Below are positions 2,927 through 41,203 of a stretch of 64,000 nucleotides of DNA, in pieces. Each line of letters begins with the position of its first letter. Within the stretch, counting starts at the first letter, position 1. Position numbers and translations under genes: made by a program. The stretch is taken from sequence record MT129654.1. One strand, written 5' to 3'. Under the pieces are notes generated by a model. That model was not told the origin of the DNA and did no database searches. It saw only the letters and a list, made by a program, of their open reading frames with translations. The DNA comes from Escherichia phage MN04.

Positions 2927-4207
2927 TTATGCCTCGTAAATAATCGGAGGAAGTTTAACACCAAGCAGATAAGACATGTTACTCTGACCTGCCATTAAAT
3001 CCATATTAGTTGCGTCTATAACACGAGCTTCTTTATCATCTTTAGCAACGGTATATGGGTTTGCTGAAAGTGCATAACGAACCATCAGAGAAATAGCCGG
3101 TTGTAAACTATCAGGGTCTACAATAACTTTATACGCACCAACATGTTCTTGGTCGTCTAAATCCAGACCTTCGGTATACGGAGCATAGAAAATAGAACCA
3201 ACTACTTCATTACCGCCGTAATCTTCTTTAACGCCTACGATAACATAATCTAAAGGACTATTAACATCACAGAATACAGGCAATCCATTAATCAAATAAC
3301 CGTAAGCAGTTTCTGGGAGCCAAGCTTCATCTTCTGGTTTATGTTTCAACCAACCTGAACCAGCGAGCATAGCAGCAGCACGACTAGATGCGACAACAAA
3401 CGTACCTGAATAAGAAGTGGTTTTCTGAATTTCAGAATTCATCTCACAAACCATTTCATATAATTTACGTGCACTTTCTGGGGCGGAATTATAGGACAAA
3501 TCAATAATACCATTATCAGATACACCAGTTACTTTGTAACGTTTAGATACGGTAATCAAGGATTGTAGTACGTCTTTATTGATTTCATCAGCCATTACAG
3601 TGGCTAAAAGGTCTTCTAAGAACGCAGGGGCGTCGAAGCCATTGGATTCCATGTCTTGGGCTAGTTCTACAGTCAAAGCGGTTTTAAGTTTACGAGACTT
3701 AACAGGTGCGTTCCATTTATTAACCTGGAATACTGCATTACTAATTTCAACATCACCTGCTTCGAATTTCTCTGTGTGAGCCGCATCAGGAACCAGACGA
3801 CATGTTAATGACACCAAACCTTCTTGAAGGGCCTCAGCCAATTCTGTAGCGCTAGTGGATGCGAGTGGGCTTGCTTGAAGAGCCTTATAAACTATGTTCT
3901 GATACTTGAAATATTCACCCTTGGCAATAGCCTGGGCCTTATCTGTGAGTTCTGGGATAGTTTCACGGTCTTTAGAACCAACTTCACCGCCATAAACGGC
4001 ACCAGTTTGGAAGCTAAATTCATTATCAGGAGTAAGATATTTGACACCATACAATGCAGCAATAGGCTGGCTAGTACGTTGTTCAGCAATAATATCACGG
4101 TAAATCAATTTGGTTGTAGCACGGGTCAAAGCAACAAGATTAGGGCGACCCAATGAGTTGCTAGAAGTAGTTGTTGACTCGCGCAGTAATTCGTTAATCT
4201 TTGCCAT
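2927..4207 (-). CDS. gp24: Head vertex protein gp24
   Basis: 426 aa; MAKINELLRESTTT N-terminus and overall match to T4 gp24; adjacent to gp23. Confidence 0.85.
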   Translation of the reverse strand: MAKINELLRESTTTSSNSLGRPNLVALTRATTKLIYRDIIAEQRTSQPIAALYGVKYLTPDNEFSFQTGAVYGGEVGSKDRETIPELTDKAQAIAKGEYFKYQNIVYKALQASPLASTSATELAEALQEGLVSLTCRLVPDAAHTEKFEAGDVEISNAVFQVNKWNAPVKSRKLKTALTVELAQDMESNGFDAPAFLEDLLATVMADEINKDVLQSLITVSKRYKVTGVSDNGIIDLSYNSAPESARKLYEMVCEMNSEIQKTTSYSGTFVVASSRAAAMLAGSGWLKHKPEDEAWLPETAYGYLINGLPVFCDVNSPLDYVIVGVKEDYGGNEVVGSIFYAPYTEGLDLDDQEHVGAYKVIVDPDSLQPAISLMVRYALSANPYTVAKDDKEARVIDATNMDLMAGQSNMSYLLGVKLPPIIYEA

Positions 4208-6204: not shown

Positions 6205-7020
6205 TTAAGAAATTCGAGATGCTGCGATTGCAGACAGGTCCGCGAAGGACAGGGTAGGCTTAGTGCCTTTTTCTTCAACTGCTTCCGAAATATAATTCAG
6301 TGCTGCAGCATCGTCTTCAGTTTTATTTATAGCGGCTTCGGTGATTGGTTTTTCAACGTCAGTCTGGCCTTTAACCATTTCAACGATAGCGCCAATTTTT
6401 TTACCAAATGCATCGGAATAATCCATGCCTTCTACCAGAGAACTAACTTTTTCTTTCTGAGATTCAGTCAGGTCTTTAGTTGCTTCAGTCAACGCAACTT
6501 CACGCTGTACGTAATTAATATATGCATCACGCTTACCAACTTCTTCGAACAGACGAGCGGTTTCATCTTTCTGCTCTTGGAGTTCTTCTTCCATTTCAGC
6601 AACAACATCCACTGCTTCTTCTGGAACAACCACATTGTGTTCAACAAACAGTTCTTTCATACCCATCAACATGGATTCGAACAGTTCGGCTTTAATACCT
6701 TTATCAACAGCCAGCTGGTTTTCAGCCATCCATTCTTTAGCAACGTGGTCAAGGAAACGACCAGCAGCTTCTTGGATTTTCTTATCAGCTTTTTCTTCAG
6801 CTTCTTCTTTATTTTTCTCAACTTCTTCTTCCGCTTTTTCAGCGATTTTAGCGATGTGAGATTCAGCCAGTTTAACGGCGTGTTGCTTGACGGTAGCTTC
6901 GAATACAGTGCCGAAAGTTTCTTTTGCTTCCGGAGAAATATTAACTGATTCGAAAATACTGTCAAGAGCAACGGAAGCATCAATATTCTGTGCTTCGGCG
7001 ATCAGTTGTTCTTTAAGCAT
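6205..7020 (-). CDS. gp22: Prohead core scaffold protein gp22
   Basis: 271 aa acidic, helical, Glu/Lys-rich; T4 position between 21 and 23. Confidence 0.8.
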   Translation of the reverse strand: MLKEQLIAEAQNIDASVALDSIFESVNISPEAKETFGTVFEATVKQHAVKLAESHIAKIAEKAEEEVEKNKEEAEEKADKKIQEAAGRFLDHVAKEWMAENQLAVDKGIKAELFESMLMGMKELFVEHNVVVPEEAVDVVAEMEEELQEQKDETARLFEEVGKRDAYINYVQREVALTEATKDLTESQKEKVSSLVEGMDYSDAFGKKIGAIVEMVKGQTDVEKPITEAAINKTEDDAAALNYISEAVEEKGTKPTLSFADLSAIAASRIS

Positions 7021-7047: not shown

Positions 7048-7055
7048 TATTTATA
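7048..7055 (-). promoter_or_regulatory. Late promoter TATAAATA for gp22
   Basis: TATAAATA on minus strand overlapping gp21 stop, about 28 nt upstream of gp22 ATG. Confidence 0.55.
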
Positions 7056-7686
7056 ACGCTTTTTTCATGGCCTCTGCGAGAGCCATAAAGGCGTCATCGG
7101 CACTGGTATCGGTATCTACCGTTTGTGATTCTGTAATTTGTTTAGGAGTTACATAAGCATCAGGAGCAGATGGACCCCATACTGCATCAACACCGACGGT
7201 TAATTTATAACCTTCGTTTACACGCTTATATCCTTTATTGGTTTCGGTTAAAGAACCTAGACCACGAGAACTAACACCAGGCACCCAACCGGCTCTAATA
7301 TTAGCAGCTAGTTTATCACCAGGACCATGGTCGCCTTCAATAATACGAGCACGTCCATAAACGTCATTACCTTTCCACCACATATCTTCAATAATAATAG
7401 CGGCTTGCATAGGGTCGACGTTAGCACGAGGCGGATGATTTAATTCTCCTAAAGCTTGTTTAGTAGCAACCTGTTCTGCCATATAATCGGCAACAGCTTT
7501 TTCCAAAATAGGTTTTGGATAAAGGCGTTTATTACGGTTAACCACTTCGGCTTGCATGAATATGCCTTCTATATAAAGGCCCGGGGCAAGTCCAGAATCT
7601 TTTCCATCATGAGATTCCAACATCGGAACCCCATCGATAATTTCACCTGGTTGTCCCCAATGTTCGATGAGCAATTCAGGTTTCAT
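7051..7686 (-). CDS. gp21: Prohead protease gp21
   Basis: 211 aa; size and position match T4 gp21. Confidence 0.85.
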   Translation of the reverse strand: MKPELLIEHWGQPGEIIDGVPMLESHDGKDSGLAPGLYIEGIFMQAEVVNRNKRLYPKPILEKAVADYMAEQVATKQALGELNHPPRANVDPMQAAIIIEDMWWKGNDVYGRARIIEGDHGPGDKLAANIRAGWVPGVSSRGLGSLTETNKGYKRVNEGYKLTVGVDAVWGPSAPDAYVTPKQITESQTVDTDTSADDAFMALAEAMKKAL

Positions 7687-8114
7687 TAGTTAAGTCCAAA
7701 GGCTTTACGTTTAGAACGAGCTTTCTTACGCTTACGTTCAGCACGTACTTGAGTAGACGGGTTAGCACGTTTGGTTTTAGATGCTTTGCGAGCAATCTGA
7801 CGGCGTTTTGCTTTAGACAACCCAGTCGTTTGATAAGCGTTGCGTTGACGGGTTTTAATATCTTTAGTACGAGTAAGCTCACCTTTAGAAGAGACGTGCT
7901 TAACGATAAATTCGTTAAGAGCCATATTTTCATTCAAAGAGGCGATGGCAATAGCTGTATCGATATCACCATCAGCAATCATGTTCTCTACAAGATTATT
8001 TATATCGCTTTTCTCGAGGGCTTCAGAAAGAGTAGCAAAACGTCCCTGTGCTTCTGGAATTTTGGCCTCTACGCTTTCTAGAGTTAATTCGTAATCATCA
8101 GGGATAAGGAACAT
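7686..8114 (-). CDS. gp68: Prohead core protein gp68
   Basis: 142 aa; T4 order 20-67-68-21; basic C-terminus. Confidence 0.65.
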
Positions 8115-8389
8115 TATTCGTCGTCCTCGTCGTCTTCATCATCGTCATCACCTTCATCCGCATCGTCAGATTCTTTTTTGTCTTTCTTATCTGCTTTATC
8201 GGATTTTTCGTCTTTATCTTCGTCTTCGTCATCTTCGTCGGCTTCTTCGCCTTCAATCATAACGGAGCGAGCAATTTCTGCTTTACGGGCTTCAATCAAA
8301 GCGGCTACTCGAGATTCGATAAGCGGGCCTGCTGCTTTACGAACTGCTACGAGGTCGTTTGATTTAATAGCTTCGATTAAATCTTCCAT
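8114..8389 (-). CDS. gp67: Prohead core protein gp67
   Basis: 91 aa with poly-acidic Asp/Glu tail; T4 synteny. Confidence 0.65.
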
Positions 8390-15925: not shown

Positions 15926-16699
15926 TTAATCATCTAAAAAAGCATCATCAAATGCTGTAGGAGGAGCATCTTCTCCTCGTCCATTAATCACAACATAAGG
16001 ATGCACGAATTCCGCCGCTTCAGCATTAATCTCATTGACCTCTTCATATTGAATGTCGGAGACGTCAGCCAATCCGTCGATATTCTTAATAGGCATTAAA
16101 TCAAGCTCACTAAACTCAGGAATATTAATACCTTCATTTCTCTGTAATTCAGGACGAAGTTCTTCACCATTGTAAATGAACTTGGTAGCGGTGATTCTAC
16201 GCTGGACGTTAGCACCCACTTGATAGAACGGGTCGTAAGGCTGTACCCAGTTAATTTCGAATAGGCTGTTGTCCATTGGGAAATAAATCAAATCGCCTGA
16301 AACAGGTTCAGTGCCATTGCATTGATGTTTAAAAAGGTTAGGGTTAATTGTGATTGTTACTTCATCATTAACCATCATACCGAACTTACTGAAATAAGTA
16401 TTGTCACCGGAATAACCTTCAAAGGAATCTAAATACCCTGCAAATTTCCAGGCTTTAGTAAATTTGTTCTGAAGGTCTTCGCCAAATAGCTGGTCCGGTT
16501 TAACGTATTCACGCGGTATATAATAAAGCTCAATACCCCGCATTTGAATAGACTCAGCAACTAAAGCATCAGCCAATGTTTGGGTATTCTCATGCTTGTA
16601 GAAGTTGACGAACGGATTCATTATTTCAGTTTCGTTCGTGTTAGCATAGCCAGTGTTATTTTCTAGCTTGGCAAATAAACTCGAATCGAAAGTAGCCAT
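15926..16699 (-). CDS. gp14: Neck protein gp14
   Basis: 257 aa (T4 256); synteny. Confidence 0.7.
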
Positions 16700-16701
16700 A
16701 A

Positions 16702-17637
16702 TTATCCAATTAAAATAGGTGTTGGTGGGTCGAGTAAATCTAATTCTTCGCGAAGACGTTCTTTTTCTAAACGAGCTTCTTCAATCAATCGAATACCATC
16801 TACAGTGGTTCCACCTGCAAGTTGCATGCCTTGGTGTTTGGCCAAAATATTACCATTGACTTCTTTAACCAATGCCGTGGCATAATCTTTGACCCAACGG
16901 TTATTATATGAACCATCTTGCAAACCAAGGTCTTCACCTGCTCTCATACCTGAAATACGACGAGCCGGGTTATCCCAAATAGCTCCAGGGCTCCATTCAT
17001 TTTCGTCACACCCGCCAGAGGCATATCCATATCCTGCGGTATTTCCTACCATAGAATCAACCCCATTAAAAGAGCGAGTATAAACTTCAATTACAATAAA
17101 ATCACCTTTAACAAAGTTACCCATTACCTTCAACTGTTCAGTGGCATCGTTATACCAATAATCAGGCAACGGAACCAAAAGGTCTTGCATCATAGAACGA
17201 TATTGCATTAATTGTGTAAAATAACCAAGGTCAGCACCAAAGGCATTAGGTCCAAAGCTGTTACAAGAAGTTCCAAGACCGCCATTAATACCTGCTAAGC
17301 CTAATACAAAATCAGTAAACCATGGATAAGTCGCTTGGCCATCCATAGATGTTAAAGAACCTACATTAGTTCTTAAAATTTGTGTCACTGCAAATATATT
17401 ACGGCCTTTAAGGTCAAATACGCCGTTACGGAATTTTTCTTCGTCATCATGGCCTATATAAAAAGCCTGATAACCTTTGTTATAACCGTTATAATGATAC
17501 TCACCGTAGAGCTCCAGGGCGCGCTGGATGCAATCGTATACTTGGTCTGTAGTTACTTCAATATTTGTAATTGGTGCACCCAGGCGGCGCAGGATTGCGT
17601 CCTTGAGTTGCTTAGGGTTATATGATTCACTTGCCAT
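16702..17637 (-). CDS. gp13: Neck protein gp13
   Basis: 311 aa (T4 309); synteny; late promoter upstream. Confidence 0.7.
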
Positions 17638-36228: not shown

Positions 36229-37127
<899 letters not shown>

Positions 37128-37208: not shown

Positions 37209-37502
37209 ATGAAAACTTATCAAGAATTTATCAAAGAATCGACAGATTTGTATTCCATTAACAAAGCGGCTATGGCCGATATTAGTAGCGATATTAAAAG
37301 AGCCTTTGGCTCAGGTGATGTTGATAAGGCTCAGCAAATTACTATTACAGTAAATGGTAAACCTGTTAGTATAGCATTCAATACGGTTAAAAAGAAATAT
37401 TATATTAATCTTGGTGATGATATCCACTTTACAAAATATAAGACTTTTTCCGGTCTTACCAAAGATAAAGTAGTTTCTAAAATCAAAGAAATTACAAAAT
37501 AA
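37209..37502 (+). CDS. Internal-protein-like protein (ipI-locus) with capsid targeting sequence
   Basis: N-terminus MKTYQEFIKES; 97 aa; early promoter upstream. Confidence 0.65.
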   Translation: MKTYQEFIKESTDLYSINKAAMADISSDIKRAFGSGDVDKAQQITITVNGKPVSIAFNTVKKKYYINLGDDIHFTKYKTFSGLTKDKVVSKIKEITK

Positions 37503-39051: not shown

Positions 39052-39318
39052 ATGTTAGTATTAAAATTAGCTTTTTATGACCCAGAAACCAAGACAACAA
39101 CTACTAAACGTTGTTCTATTTCATATGAATGCCAATTTGGCGAAGTTGAGACCGACGGCGAGCCCTTTATGGCAATTGCCGATAGCACATTCGCTAAACC
39201 AAAAATAATTCCACTAGTTAACGCTGCGGCTTATCTGGTTGCTCCTGAAGAAATGACTTATCATACAATTCAGCACATGGCTAAAGACGATAATGCTCCT
39301 GCTGGATTTGTAATTTAA
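39052..39318 (+). CDS. Hypothetical protein
   Basis: ATG 39052 with GAGGTG RBS (track start 39046 is GTG); ends 5 nt before first tRNA. Confidence 0.45.
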   Translation: MLVLKLAFYDPETKTTTTKRCSISYECQFGEVETDGEPFMAIADSTFAKPKIIPLVNAAAYLVAPEEMTYHTIQHMAKDDNAPAGFVI

Positions 39319-39323
39319 ATTAA

Positions 39324-39397
39324 GGCCCTGTAGCTGGACGGTCAAGCGAGCGACTCATAATCGCTGGATGGTGGTTCGATTCCACCCAGGGCCACCA
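39324..39397 (+). tRNA. tRNA-Met (anticodon CAU; could be Ile2 if lysidine-modified)
   Basis: Perfect 7-bp acceptor stem, anticodon stem AGCGA/TCGCT with loop CTCATAA, T-arm GGTGG-TTCGATT-CCACC, encoded CCA. Confidence 0.8.
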
Positions 39398-39401
39398 ATT
39401 T

Positions 39402-39476
39402 GGATGTGTAGCTCAGTGGTAGAGCAGTTGACTGTTAATCAATTGGTCCATGGTTCGAATCCATGCATGTCCGCCA
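39402..39476 (+). tRNA. tRNA-Asn (anticodon GUU)
   Basis: Cloverleaf: D-arm GCTC/GAGC, anticodon loop CTGTTAA, T-arm CATGG-TTCGAAT-CCATG, acceptor with two G-U pairs, CCA. Confidence 0.75.
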
Positions 39477-39480
39477 AATA

Positions 39481-39556
39481 CGAGGCATAGCTCAGAAGGA
39501 AGAGCAACGGTCTTCTAAACCGTAGGTCGTAGGTTCGATCCCTACTGTCTCGACCA
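39481..39556 (+). tRNA. tRNA-Arg (anticodon UCU)
   Basis: Cloverleaf: D-arm GCTC/GAGC, anticodon stem ACGGT/ACCGT loop CTTCTAA, T-arm GTAGG-TTCGATC-CCTAC, CCA. Confidence 0.85.
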
Positions 39557-39840
39557 AACAAGAAACCGGGTCGCTACCGGTAAGCCGTCGGACTGATGTT
39601 CCCTGAGTAAGGACTGACATTAACAAATCTTTACGATCTGTTAACGTCCCCTTACATCACAGCAGAAACGGCGCACCGAATTATCGATTCGAGGAAATAT
39701 CTTTGCCGTAAGCCGAGTAGCGTTTTTGACGGAACGTTCGGATATGGTCGAGATATGGCCTTTTAAAAATATTGAGTAGCGTCAACTACTTAATAACCGG
39801 GTTCGAATCCTGGCGTTTCGTACAAACACTTGCCTAGCAG
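39557..39840 (+). ncRNA. Candidate small stable RNA(s) or degenerate tRNA-like element after the tRNA cluster
   Basis: No ORF; tRNA-like T-arm (CCGGG-TTCGAAT-CCTGG) and 7-bp acceptor pairing 39730-36 with 39814-20; internal repeats CGGTAAGCCG and GAGTAGCG. Confidence 0.3.
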
Positions 39841-39872
39841 GTGGAACCCCGACAAGGTTACCCTAGGTTAAA

Positions 39873-39909
39873 GGCCCTTCCGAAAGGTTGGGCCTTTTTT
39901 GTATAAATA
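39873..39909 (+). repeat. Terminator hairpin plus late promoter cassette, copy 1
   Basis: GGCCCTTCCGAAAGGTTGGGCC, T-run, then GTATAAATA; near-identical copy at 40496. Confidence 0.7.
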
Positions 39910-39935
39910 TACAGTAAACTAACTTAGGAAATAAT

Positions 39936-40490
39936 ATGAAACTTTTAAAATATTTGAGTTGGATTCTGTTGGTCCCACTAGATTTTATCTCTATGGTTCT
40001 AGCCGTTATCCTTGCGCCTTTTGTGGTTCCTTTCCACAATAAAAAGACTGGTAAATTGCCGTACGGTTTTGATTGGATGATGACATACGATAATCCAATT
40101 GACGGTGACAAAGGTCATATTAAACGTTGGGCTAAAATCAGGAAAATGCCTGGCGGTGTTTATCTCCAGAGGGTAGCTTGGCTATGGCGAAATAAAGCTT
40201 ATAACTTTGCTTACCATAAACTCGGTCGCGATTGTAGCTCAGAATTCCATTATCGTGGTAATCCTGATGTGGAATCAGGTTCTCCTGATAAAGCTCACCA
40301 TGGTTGGTTGTGGATGTGGAATGATGACGCCTGGGGTGTATTTGCTTCAGTTCCTTATCTTAAGGTCGGTGGAATCACATTTTACCTTCGCGTGTACTGT
40401 GGCTGGAAGCTTAAGAGTCTTTTGTCTCGTAAAATCCCTAAAGCTATGTTAGCCTTCCACGTGAACCCGTTCCGGTTCTACAAGAACTGA
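39936..40490 (+). CDS. Membrane-anchored hypothetical protein (late-promoter driven)
   Basis: 184 aa; N-terminal TM helix (LSWILLVPLDFISMVLAVILAPFVVPF); Trp-rich; AGGAA RBS. Confidence 0.55.
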   Translation: MKLLKYLSWILLVPLDFISMVLAVILAPFVVPFHNKKTGKLPYGFDWMMTYDNPIDGDKGHIKRWAKIRKMPGGVYLQRVAWLWRNKAYNFAYHKLGRDCSSEFHYRGNPDVESGSPDKAHHGWLWMWNDDAWGVFASVPYLKVGGITFYLRVYCGWKLKSLLSRKIPKAMLAFHVNPFRFYKN

Positions 40491-40495
40491 TTTAC

Positions 40496-40531
40496 GGCCC
40501 TTCCGAAAGGTTGGGCCTTTTTGTATAAATA
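40496..40531 (+). repeat. Terminator hairpin plus late promoter cassette, copy 2
   Basis: Same 36-bp sequence as 39873-39909 with one fewer T. Confidence 0.7.
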
Positions 40532-40559
40532 GATAAGTTAATTAACACAGGAAACAATA

Positions 40560-41177
40560 ATGAAAACTTACAATGAATTTTTGAACGAAAGCGTTCTGAC
40601 TGAAGCCAGCGTGCGCATGACTAAAGATATGTGGCAAGCTGCTTATGATAAAATTTCCGGGACTAAAACCACTACCGAGTTCTTTAAAAACGTTTATGAT
40701 ATGTATGGTTTTGATACTAGTAGCCAGAAAGAATATTACAAAGCTTCCAAAGCTTTTAAAGATATCGTAGCCGGTGGCGCTACTAAGCCTGCTAAACCAG
40801 CTAAAGCTCCTGTTTCTAAACCCGTGGCTCAGACCAAAGTTGCAGCACCGAAACCGACACCTAAAGCAGAGCCTGTAAAAGAAGCTCCTAAACCTAAAAT
40901 CAAGTTCGACACCAGCACTATTGTTAAAAAATATAACCAGCTGGCTTCTTTGGTTTCTGAAATCGAATCCGAAACTAAACAACTCGTTCGAGAATTCAAC
41001 GCCCTTCGTAATGGGCAGCACATTAACAACCTGGATACCCCAGACCTCTATCGTCTTTACCTGACGGTTGAAGGCCTTAAGTATACCCAGCCTATGCACG
41101 AAGAAATTGATAACAAACTTCGTCAAGCCCGCCGCCTTGCAGGTGACGCAGCACAGTTCGAAAAGACCCGTAAATAA
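40560..41177 (+). CDS. Internal-protein-like protein with capsid targeting sequence and Pro/Ala/Lys-rich linker
   Basis: N-terminus MKTYNEFLNES; 'KPAKPAKAPVSKPVAQTKVAAPKPTPKAEPVKEAPKPK' linker; late promoter upstream. Confidence 0.65.
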   Translation: MKTYNEFLNESVLTEASVRMTKDMWQAAYDKISGTKTTTEFFKNVYDMYGFDTSSQKEYYKASKAFKDIVAGGATKPAKPAKAPVSKPVAQTKVAAPKPTPKAEPVKEAPKPKIKFDTSTIVKKYNQLASLVSEIESETKQLVREFNALRNGQHINNLDTPDLYRLYLTVEGLKYTQPMHEEIDNKLRQARRLAGDAAQFEKTRK

Positions 41178-41180
41178 TGA

Positions 41181-41203
41181 AAGGAGACTTTGGTCTCCTT
41201 TTA
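41181..41203 (+). terminator. Rho-independent terminator (AAGGAGAC-TTTG-GTCTCCTT then T-run)
   Basis: 8-bp stem plus T-run right after stop at 41177. Confidence 0.6.

Follow-up and report, generated by a model that had tools for sequence, protein, structure and literature searches.

Within a stretch of 64,000 nucleotides from Escherichia phage MN04 (record MT129654.1, one strand), referred to here as the window, an open reading frame (ORF) on the plus strand at 40560..41177 encodes a protein of 205 amino acids plus stop. It has an ATG start and begins with MKTYNEFLNES, as the initial annotation had read it. The region is ~98.6% identical to Escherichia phage JS98 (Dhakavirus, Straboviridae) by megablast, on the reverse strand of the JS98 record, and the ORF corresponds to JS98 orf135 (YP_001595264.1, 98% protein identity), which is labelled "hypothetical protein". 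Its product is a member of phrog_2280, a family filed under function unknown (E = 7.2e-60, with residues 1-200 aligned to the full 178-position profile), and the members of its cluster are named "hypothetical" in every public source. The gene is part of a conserved, syntenic and modular family and not a phage-specific extra. Judged by its sequence, the protein known so far as hypothetical carries a T4-type "address label" for the head and is probably one more packaged protein.

The gene is framed by signals of its own. A second terminator hairpin (40496..40522, plus strand) lies upstream; it consists of the GC-rich GGCCCTTCC-GAAA-GGTTGGGCC at 40496-40517 and a following TTTTT. Behind it stands the T4-type late promoter TATAAATA (40524..40531, plus strand), 36 nucleotides upstream of the ATG. 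A Shine-Dalgarno sequence AGGA, read directly from the sequence, was found at 40549..40552 (plus strand), 7 nucleotides before the ATG. Directly after the stop codon, the hairpin AAAGGAGAC-TTTG-GTCTCCTTT (41180..41201, no strand assigned) closes the single-gene late unit, which is therefore self-contained. The duplicated terminator/late-promoter cassette that had been described upstream of the gene could be confirmed, with copies at 39873-39909 and 40496-40531. The two copies (36-37 nucleotides) differ by one T. The first (39873..39909, plus strand) comprises the terminator hairpin of the rnaC/tRNA operon at 39873-39894, a T-run and TATAAATA at 39902-39909, and drives the ORF 39936-40490 (DUF7338). 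Its hairpin is homologous to the terminator downstream of rnaC in T4 and AR1.

Over the whole window, TATAAATA occurs 17 times with 6.9 occurrences expected. Among the homologues, the seven genera checked all have TATAAATA, or ATAAATA in two of them, 35-43 nucleotides ahead of the start codon. A hairpin precedes the promoter in each upstream sequence inspected, and one of the type at 41180-41201 precedes the homologue of Yersinia phage fHe-Yen9-01. The promoter consensus thus supports a predicted late expression of the gene.

Residues 1-10 of the protein (MKTYNEFLNE, 40560..40589, plus strand) form a leader of the capsid-targeting type that ends in the cleavage motif L-N-E. It is followed by a second (L/I)xE motif in residues 11-15 (SVLTE, 40590..40604, plus strand), which resembles the gp23 site SFLTE/A of the window (the slash marks the cleavage position). 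A position-specific scoring matrix was built from 20 internal-protein leaders of five other genera, members of the phrog_2280 family being excluded, and was scored on each of the window's 1130 candidate starts (ORFs of 50 amino acids or more). The leader of the 40560 ORF reached 37.4 bits and rank 3 of 1130. Five leader-bearing ORFs scored between 34.4 and 41.3 bits, namely those starting at 36918 (GTG start), 37209, 40560, 49749 (IPIII, phrog_5341) and 50406 (internal head protein, phrog_2667). The next best start had 6.0 bits, with a background mean of -21.6 (standard deviation 7.6), and this gap excludes a chance likeness of the leader. The start with a capsid-targeting sequence (CTS) proposed by the initial annotation is therefore not coincidental (37.4 bits against at most 6 for ORFs of other kinds). 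Its count of at least five CTS-bearing genes against three in T4 agrees with the five leader-bearing ORFs, and the 40560 ORF indeed lies on the far side of the tRNA genes (tRNA-Met, tRNA-Asn and tRNA-Arg, 39324-39556) from the ipI-type ORFs at 36918 and 37209.

The first 10 residues of T4 IPIII suffice for the packaging of foreign proteins. Within this leader, targeting depends on residues 4 and 7 and processing on residues 8 and 10; the cut by gp21 is made behind (L/I)-x-E (PMC9026906). The corresponding residues of the window protein are Y4, F7, L8 and E10. Across 38 family members with an overall identity of 19-40%, position 4 remains aromatic, position 7 F or I, position 8 L or I, and position 10 E. 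Conservation of E10 in the family is 90% or higher, and E15 and A16 are conserved in alignment A1. No [LI]xE motif occurs in the protein other than those at residues 8-10 and 13-15. In Enterobacter phage PG7, the small CTS ORF behind gene e, annotated as 'hypothetical protein', starts with the identical 10-mer MKTYNEFLNE; its mature part resembles CTS ORFs of p000v and CIP9 that are also annotated as hypothetical. The full CTS score, the identical 10-mer of PG7 and the conservation of the T4-mapped positions together strengthen the case for capsid targeting.

The enzyme and the core that such a leader would address are encoded in the same window. By order, lengths and sequences, ORFs were read as gp20, gp67, gp68, gp21, gp22, gp23 and gp24, with the prohead protease gp21 at 7051-7686 and the core genes gp22 at 6205-7020, gp67 at 8114-8389 and gp68 at 7686-8114, all on the minus strand. 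With a leader, a cleavage motif and protease and core genes in one genome, the protein qualifies as a candidate of the class as it is defined by sequence. Such additional proteins extend a topical class and are no surprise in principle; T-even relatives were already known in 1994 to have further CTS proteins. Two further ideas on the leader and its motifs were given up. Selection against internal protease sites was dropped as a line of evidence, as the counts in the mature parts of the family carried no signal (38 against 38.7). A co-variation of the family leader with the internal-protein leaders of each phage was rejected; the internal proteins keep MKTY and the family drifts to ML[NK]F.

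Behind the leader, the protein is divided into two domains joined by a linker. The N-domain (residues 17-73, 40608..40778, plus strand) is the best-conserved part of the type-1 family, with the consensus RMTKxKWQxAxD...YG..T...Y.K...AFK. It has three short helices (22-30, 38-49 and 56-70), and AlphaFold2 gave a predicted local distance difference test score (pLDDT) of ~80-85 for residues 22-70. The linker (residues 74-113, 40779..40898, plus strand) has the sequence ATKPAKPAKAPVSKPVAQTKVAAPKPTPKAEPVKEAPKPK and is the low-complexity Pro/Ala/Lys segment that had been described before. It is predicted to be disordered (pLDDT < 50) and is basic, with an isoelectric point (pI) of 10.4; 10 Lys, 10 Pro and 9 Ala were counted in its 40 residues (72% K+P+A). 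It is non-periodic, the only repeat being one of 9 nucleotides in 2.6 copies. Across the family, its length and sequence vary and its composition is kept. The C-domain (residues 114-205, 40899..41174, plus strand) was predicted by AlphaFold2 as a bundle of three helices (119-150, 161-174 and 177-204) with a pLDDT above 90, in agreement with the helical C-terminal domain of the initial annotation. The predicted mature protein has ~21 kDa and a pI of 9.6-9.7.

Database searches with the 205-residue protein were also carried out. Pfam gave no family above cut-off and only sub-threshold compositional matches, PADLOC gave no match, and a sequence-profile search of the PDB returned designed coiled coils only; these searches and the fold searches gave no lead to function. 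The C-domain, for which a homology check had been suggested, is shared with the Tequatrovirus type-2 proteins described below (hhalign probability 98.8%), and no family or fold match pointed to a function. The idea of histone-like repeats was rejected, as the linker lacks periodicity. The linker may simply be a spacer between the two domains, and a histone-like or anti-defence role of the protein is pure speculation.

By tblastn, the gene was found in 143 phage records, in which the ORF is full length, in at least seven genera and down to ~33% identity. Records of Dhakavirus, Mosigvirus, Karamvirus, Kanagawavirus, Marfavirus and Tegunavirus were inspected directly, and tblastn matches were also obtained in phages of Serratia, Kosakonia, Erwinia and Aeromonas. 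Word-indexed and profile searches yielded 53 clusters, mostly on ~170-kb contigs. An exhaustive HMMER search of 1.84 billion representatives gave only 22 matches and brought in few new members; those inspected were of the same protein kind, and no bacterial or other context was seen. In all genera examined, the gene occupies a fixed slot, with the tRNA/rnaC cluster on its upstream side and e.8/e.6 on its downstream side. In alignment A2, with 38 sequences that are 19-95% identical to the window protein, the leader follows M-x-x-[YF]-x-[EDQ]-[FI]-[LI]-x-E-[SAT], most members have the second site [LIVM]-x-[TS]-E-[AS], and the N-domain is well conserved. Two unrelated C-domains occur in the family. 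Type a was found in the Dhakavirus window protein, Mosigvirus, Karamvirus, Marfavirus and Tegunavirus, and type b in Jiaodavirus and Kanagawavirus.

The N-domain is replaced as well. Yersinia phage fHe-Yen9-01 has a second gene, gp153, with an N-domain of type 2, in tandem with the homologue gp154, which has the type-1 N-domain. BLASTP found only the leader in common between the two, and gp153 is a full-length match to phrog_2280. Both leaders are near-identical (MLQYNEFLKES in gp154 and MLEYSEFLKEL in gp153; positions 16001-17116 of the fHe-Yen9-01 segment compared). Relatives of gp153 were found in 527 records, mostly of Tequatrovirus, for example AR1_137 and fD1 g140 (157 amino acids). These type-2 proteins fill the same slot, in the order rnaC, terminator, TATAAATA, gene and e.8. 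They start with MKSY[AT]QFLNEAVLNEA and have a short Lys/Pro/Ala linker and a different N-domain, while their C-domain is related to the one of the window protein with an hhalign probability of 98.8% (E 5e-17). By these comparisons, the leader and the basic linker are the constant elements of the superfamily, and the N- and C-domains are exchanged between lineages. Such module exchange around a constant leader mirrors the T4-type internal proteins, which share only the leader (PMC12373910; PMC3012670).

In T4, rnaC and e.8 have no gene between them. The terminator hairpin has survived there, but GGTATAAATAAG is changed to GGTAT--CTAAG. When T4 (2125-2410 of the segment compared) was set against window positions 39895-39935, TATAAATA was seen to be decayed to TAT--CTA, with the gene absent. 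T4 has thus lost both gene and promoter, a clear case of such a loss in the reference phage, and this loss plausibly explains why the family was never studied.

The closest known counterparts are the internal proteins IPI, IPII and IPIII of T4, which bear a CTS, are processed by gp21 and injected, and each inhibit a specific type IV restriction enzyme of the GmrSD kind (PMC12373910). Like them, the window protein has a 10-residue leader MKTY.EF[IL].E ending in (L/I)xE with a second motif soon after, as in IPI (...GKLE/A). Its predicted mature form is basic, the phage also encodes gp21 and the core genes, and mature parts are unrelated between families, with only the leader in common. It differs from the T4 internal proteins in its position between rnaC and e.8, outside the ip loci (57B-trna.4 and the e-denV region), in a dedicated late promoter of its own, and in two domains with a 40-residue disordered linker in place of a small compact domain. 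It is also conserved and syntenic across genera, whereas they are hypervariable.

The two cleavage motifs resemble those of the gp24 and gp23 propeptides, which are gp21 substrates: NEFLNE/S compares to NELLRE/S of gp24 (MAKINELLRE/S) and SVLTE/A to SFLTE/A of gp23 (SFLTE/AEIGG). However, gp23 and gp24 build the shell and have the HK97 fold, and the gp24 leader has only 1.6 bits on the CTS matrix compared to 37.4 here. Unlike core proteins of the gp22/gp67/gp68 type, the mature part is basic (pI 9.6-9.7) and has no [LI]xE motif after residue 15. AR1_137, fD1 g140 and fHe-Yen9-01 gp153 (phrog_2280) share the locus, the arrangement of terminator and late promoter, the leader type, the Lys/Pro/Ala linker and a homologous C-domain with the window protein. 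They differ in their N-domain (GKYSY...ESRFQFARDM), in a C-domain that is shortened in AR1 and fD1, and in their length of 157-178 amino acids compared to 205. Finally, the linker is similar to the C-terminal tail of histone H1 and to KPAA repeats of the AlgP type in its 72% K+P+A, net positive charge and predicted disorder. Unlike these tails, it has no periodic repeat and no Pfam match above cut-off, and the likeness is compositional only.

Some further features of the window concern the same gene classes and the neighbourhood of the unit. Two tandem gp24-like vertex-protein genes are present on the minus strand at 1643-2926 and 2927-4207 (427 and 426 amino acids), and both proteins have a 10-residue propeptide ending in (L/I)xE/S, MKKINALIQE/S and MAKINELLRE/S. 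In the ipI-type locus, the ORF 36918-37127 encodes 69 amino acids with an acidic mature part (pI 4.1), and its GTG start overlaps the 57B stop. The ORF 37209-37502 in the same locus encodes 97 amino acids and begins with MKTYQEFIKES. They match phrog_23867 and phrog_27873, both listed as function unknown, and the RefSeq record of JS98 has no coding sequence in the 57B-trna.4 gap where they sit. The stretch between tRNA-Arg and the first cassette (39557-39870) is a homologue of the small stable RNAs rnaD and rnaC of T4 (species 2 and 1). In an alignment with T4 it is near-identical to T4 and AR1, and it is absent from the JS98 annotation. A tRNA-like GGTTCGAATCC motif is part of rnaC, and Rfam gave three tRNAs only on 39200-40000 and nothing for rnaD/rnaC. 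The DUF7338 ORF (39936-40490, 184 amino acids) has a hydrophobic N-terminus and its own late promoter, and is flanked on both sides by the cassette. In the dhakaviruses IME08, C6, dhaeg, dhabil and CLB_P2, which do not have this ORF, homology sets in at precisely 40496, where the second hairpin begins. The DUF7338 gene thus has the look of an inserted or deleted segment with a copy of the cassette at either end.

The following course of events is proposed for the 205-residue protein. The gene would be transcribed as a single-gene late unit consisting of terminator, TATAAATA, ORF and hairpin. The 10-residue N-terminal CTS would direct the product into the assembling prohead core, where gp21, encoded in the window, would cut the leader off after Glu10 and/or Glu15. 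A basic protein of ~21 kDa (pI 9.6) with a helical N-domain, a flexible Lys/Pro/Ala linker and a three-helix C-domain would remain in the head. Its lysine-rich linker may lie against the packaged DNA, as contacts between lysines and DNA phosphates are documented for T4 internal proteins (PMC3012670). At infection, the protein would be released from the capsid together with the DNA. For Dhakavirus, and probably also for the Tequatrovirus relatives, a capsid-targeted late protein that is processed by gp21 to a basic two-domain form of ~21 kDa is the most parsimonious view and is given a probability of roughly 0.55.

All sequence-level statements of the initial annotation stand, while the packaging it proposed has a different footing. 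The conserved ORF, the full-strength CTS, the two protease-type motifs found only at the N-terminus, the conserved late promoter, the protease and core genes and the domain architecture are established here, whereas targeting, cleavage, residence in the virion, DNA contact, injection and any anti-defence role are inferred. The step from a full CTS and late synthesis to packaging draws on T4 experiments with foreign cargo and is transferred to this protein by analogy. No observation points to a particular downstream function. Since a different GmrSD enzyme is inhibited by each of Ip1, Ip2 and Ip3 (PMC12373910), an anti-defence role may reasonably be hypothesised. Conservation and synteny would fit a general DNA-handling or head-related role equally well.

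Several observations weigh against packaging. No virion or prohead data were found in the literature for the protein or its close relatives, nor was a published Dhakavirus virion proteome, and accession searches of the literature were empty as well. In purified virions of ValerieMcCarty04 (Klebsiella, Jiaodavirus) analysed by liquid chromatography with tandem mass spectrometry (LC-MS/MS), the homologue WKM80661.1 had zero peptides (PMC13119998, Supplementary Data S2), and in the peptide list, which is sorted by accession, WKM80658.1 is followed directly by WKM80662.1. The same list contains 92 rows of 'internal virion protein' with genuine matches for WKM80648.1, and the non-structural 57B is covered by many high-confidence peptides (PMC13119998). 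WKM80661.1 is preceded by a late promoter and would yield many tryptic peptides suited to detection, so it is not an abundant virion component in ValerieMcCarty04. This negative result comes with caveats, however: the leader of WKM80661.1 is degenerate (MKFKDFLTEE, ~0 bits), its C-domain is of type b, and WKM80674.1, an ORF of the ipI locus with a canonical leader, escaped detection as well. The list also holds many matches with E > 1 assigned to proteins without that peptide, for example WKM80662.1 (PMC13119998). Outside Dhakavirus, moreover, the family leader (ML[NK]F...) has only 9-21 bits, whereas MKTY is retained by the canonical internal proteins of these phages. Known internal proteins are hypervariable, but this gene is both conserved and syntenic, and the mature parts of the family show no shortage of [LI]xE motifs (38 observed, 38.7 expected).

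A positive result was available for Yersinia phage fD1. Its g140 (type 2, leader MKSYTQFLNEA) was listed as particle-associated by LC-MS/MS (PMC8309999, Table S3). The dataset is unspecific and counts against a strong reading, since it includes 137 of 277 phage proteins and 672 host proteins (PMC8309999). The detection of g140 therefore indicates expression and co-purification and not specific packaging. The proteome of phiR1-RT is irrelevant, as this phage is without the gene. The gel-band mass spectrometry of ECLFM1 (Karamvirus) does not name hypothetical proteins, and the RB69 paper has no virion proteome in it.

These data could also be explained by a late cytoplasmic protein, an accessory of assembly, packaging or lysis timing, that is never packaged and whose N-terminal likeness was inherited, recombined or is that of an amphipathic helix, without a targeting role in most lineages. 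The absent virion peptides of the Jiaodavirus homologue, the divergence from MKTY outside Dhakavirus and Tequatrovirus, a synteny across genera that suggests housekeeping rather than an arms race, and the undepleted protease motifs are all in line with it. Yet the leader in the window is indistinguishable from a working CTS, and as the 10-residue CTS of T4 alone packages unrelated proteins, a late protein with a CTS would be expected to enter the head irrespective of what else it does. The four positions mapped by function are kept even where the rest of the leader drifts, the leader persists through exchanges of both domains, and fD1 g140 was detected in particle preparations. A protein that stays outside the head is thus regarded as unlikely, although it deserves to be taken seriously.

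The negative proteomics of ValerieMcCarty04 could be reconciled with a functional leader if the protein were a transient, scaffold-associated component of the prohead core, which is targeted by the leader, acts in head assembly or size determination and is removed at maturation. The leader with two protease motifs, late expression alongside the head genes and a helical, coiled-coil-like C-domain of scaffold-like appearance would suit such a component. But with no [LI]xE after residue 15, gp21 would leave an intact basic protein of 21 kDa, whereas departing T4 core proteins are cut to small fragments (PMC9026906) and are acidic, like gp67 and gp22 of the window, and T4 builds normal heads without the gene. 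A core component of this kind is considered quite improbable. The searches yielded neither a function nor a Pfam family nor a structural homologue, which would be in line with an ORF that arose by chance or with a pseudogene in decay. This is excluded for practical purposes by conservation: the ORF is full length throughout the 143 records, promoter, Shine-Dalgarno sequence and terminator are conserved, both domains are confidently predicted, and the match to phrog_2280 is strong.

A bolder and rather doubtful proposal goes beyond packaging in Dhakavirus. In it, the phrog_2280 superfamily would be an unrecognised, near-universal class of packaged and injected T-even proteins, overlooked since T4 deleted gene and promoter. 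The leader and a DNA-hugging Lys/Pro/Ala tether would deliver two exchangeable helical modules, and their swaps would be adaptations to host targets such as defence systems.

Hundreds of T-even-type phages with sequenced genomes carry the superfamily, and many of these phages are candidates for therapy. The superfamily has never been studied because it is "hypothetical" everywhere and missing from the T4 model. Each further leader-bearing protein is a candidate for an injected counter-defence or DNA-handling factor, because the three internal proteins of T4 were shown to be injected GmrSD inhibitors (PMC12373910). If the protein is packaged, the capsid cargo would gain a conserved two-domain protein with a long, disordered basic tether. 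If it is not, a perfect CTS would be insufficient in its natural context, which would matter for CTS-based protein delivery with T4.

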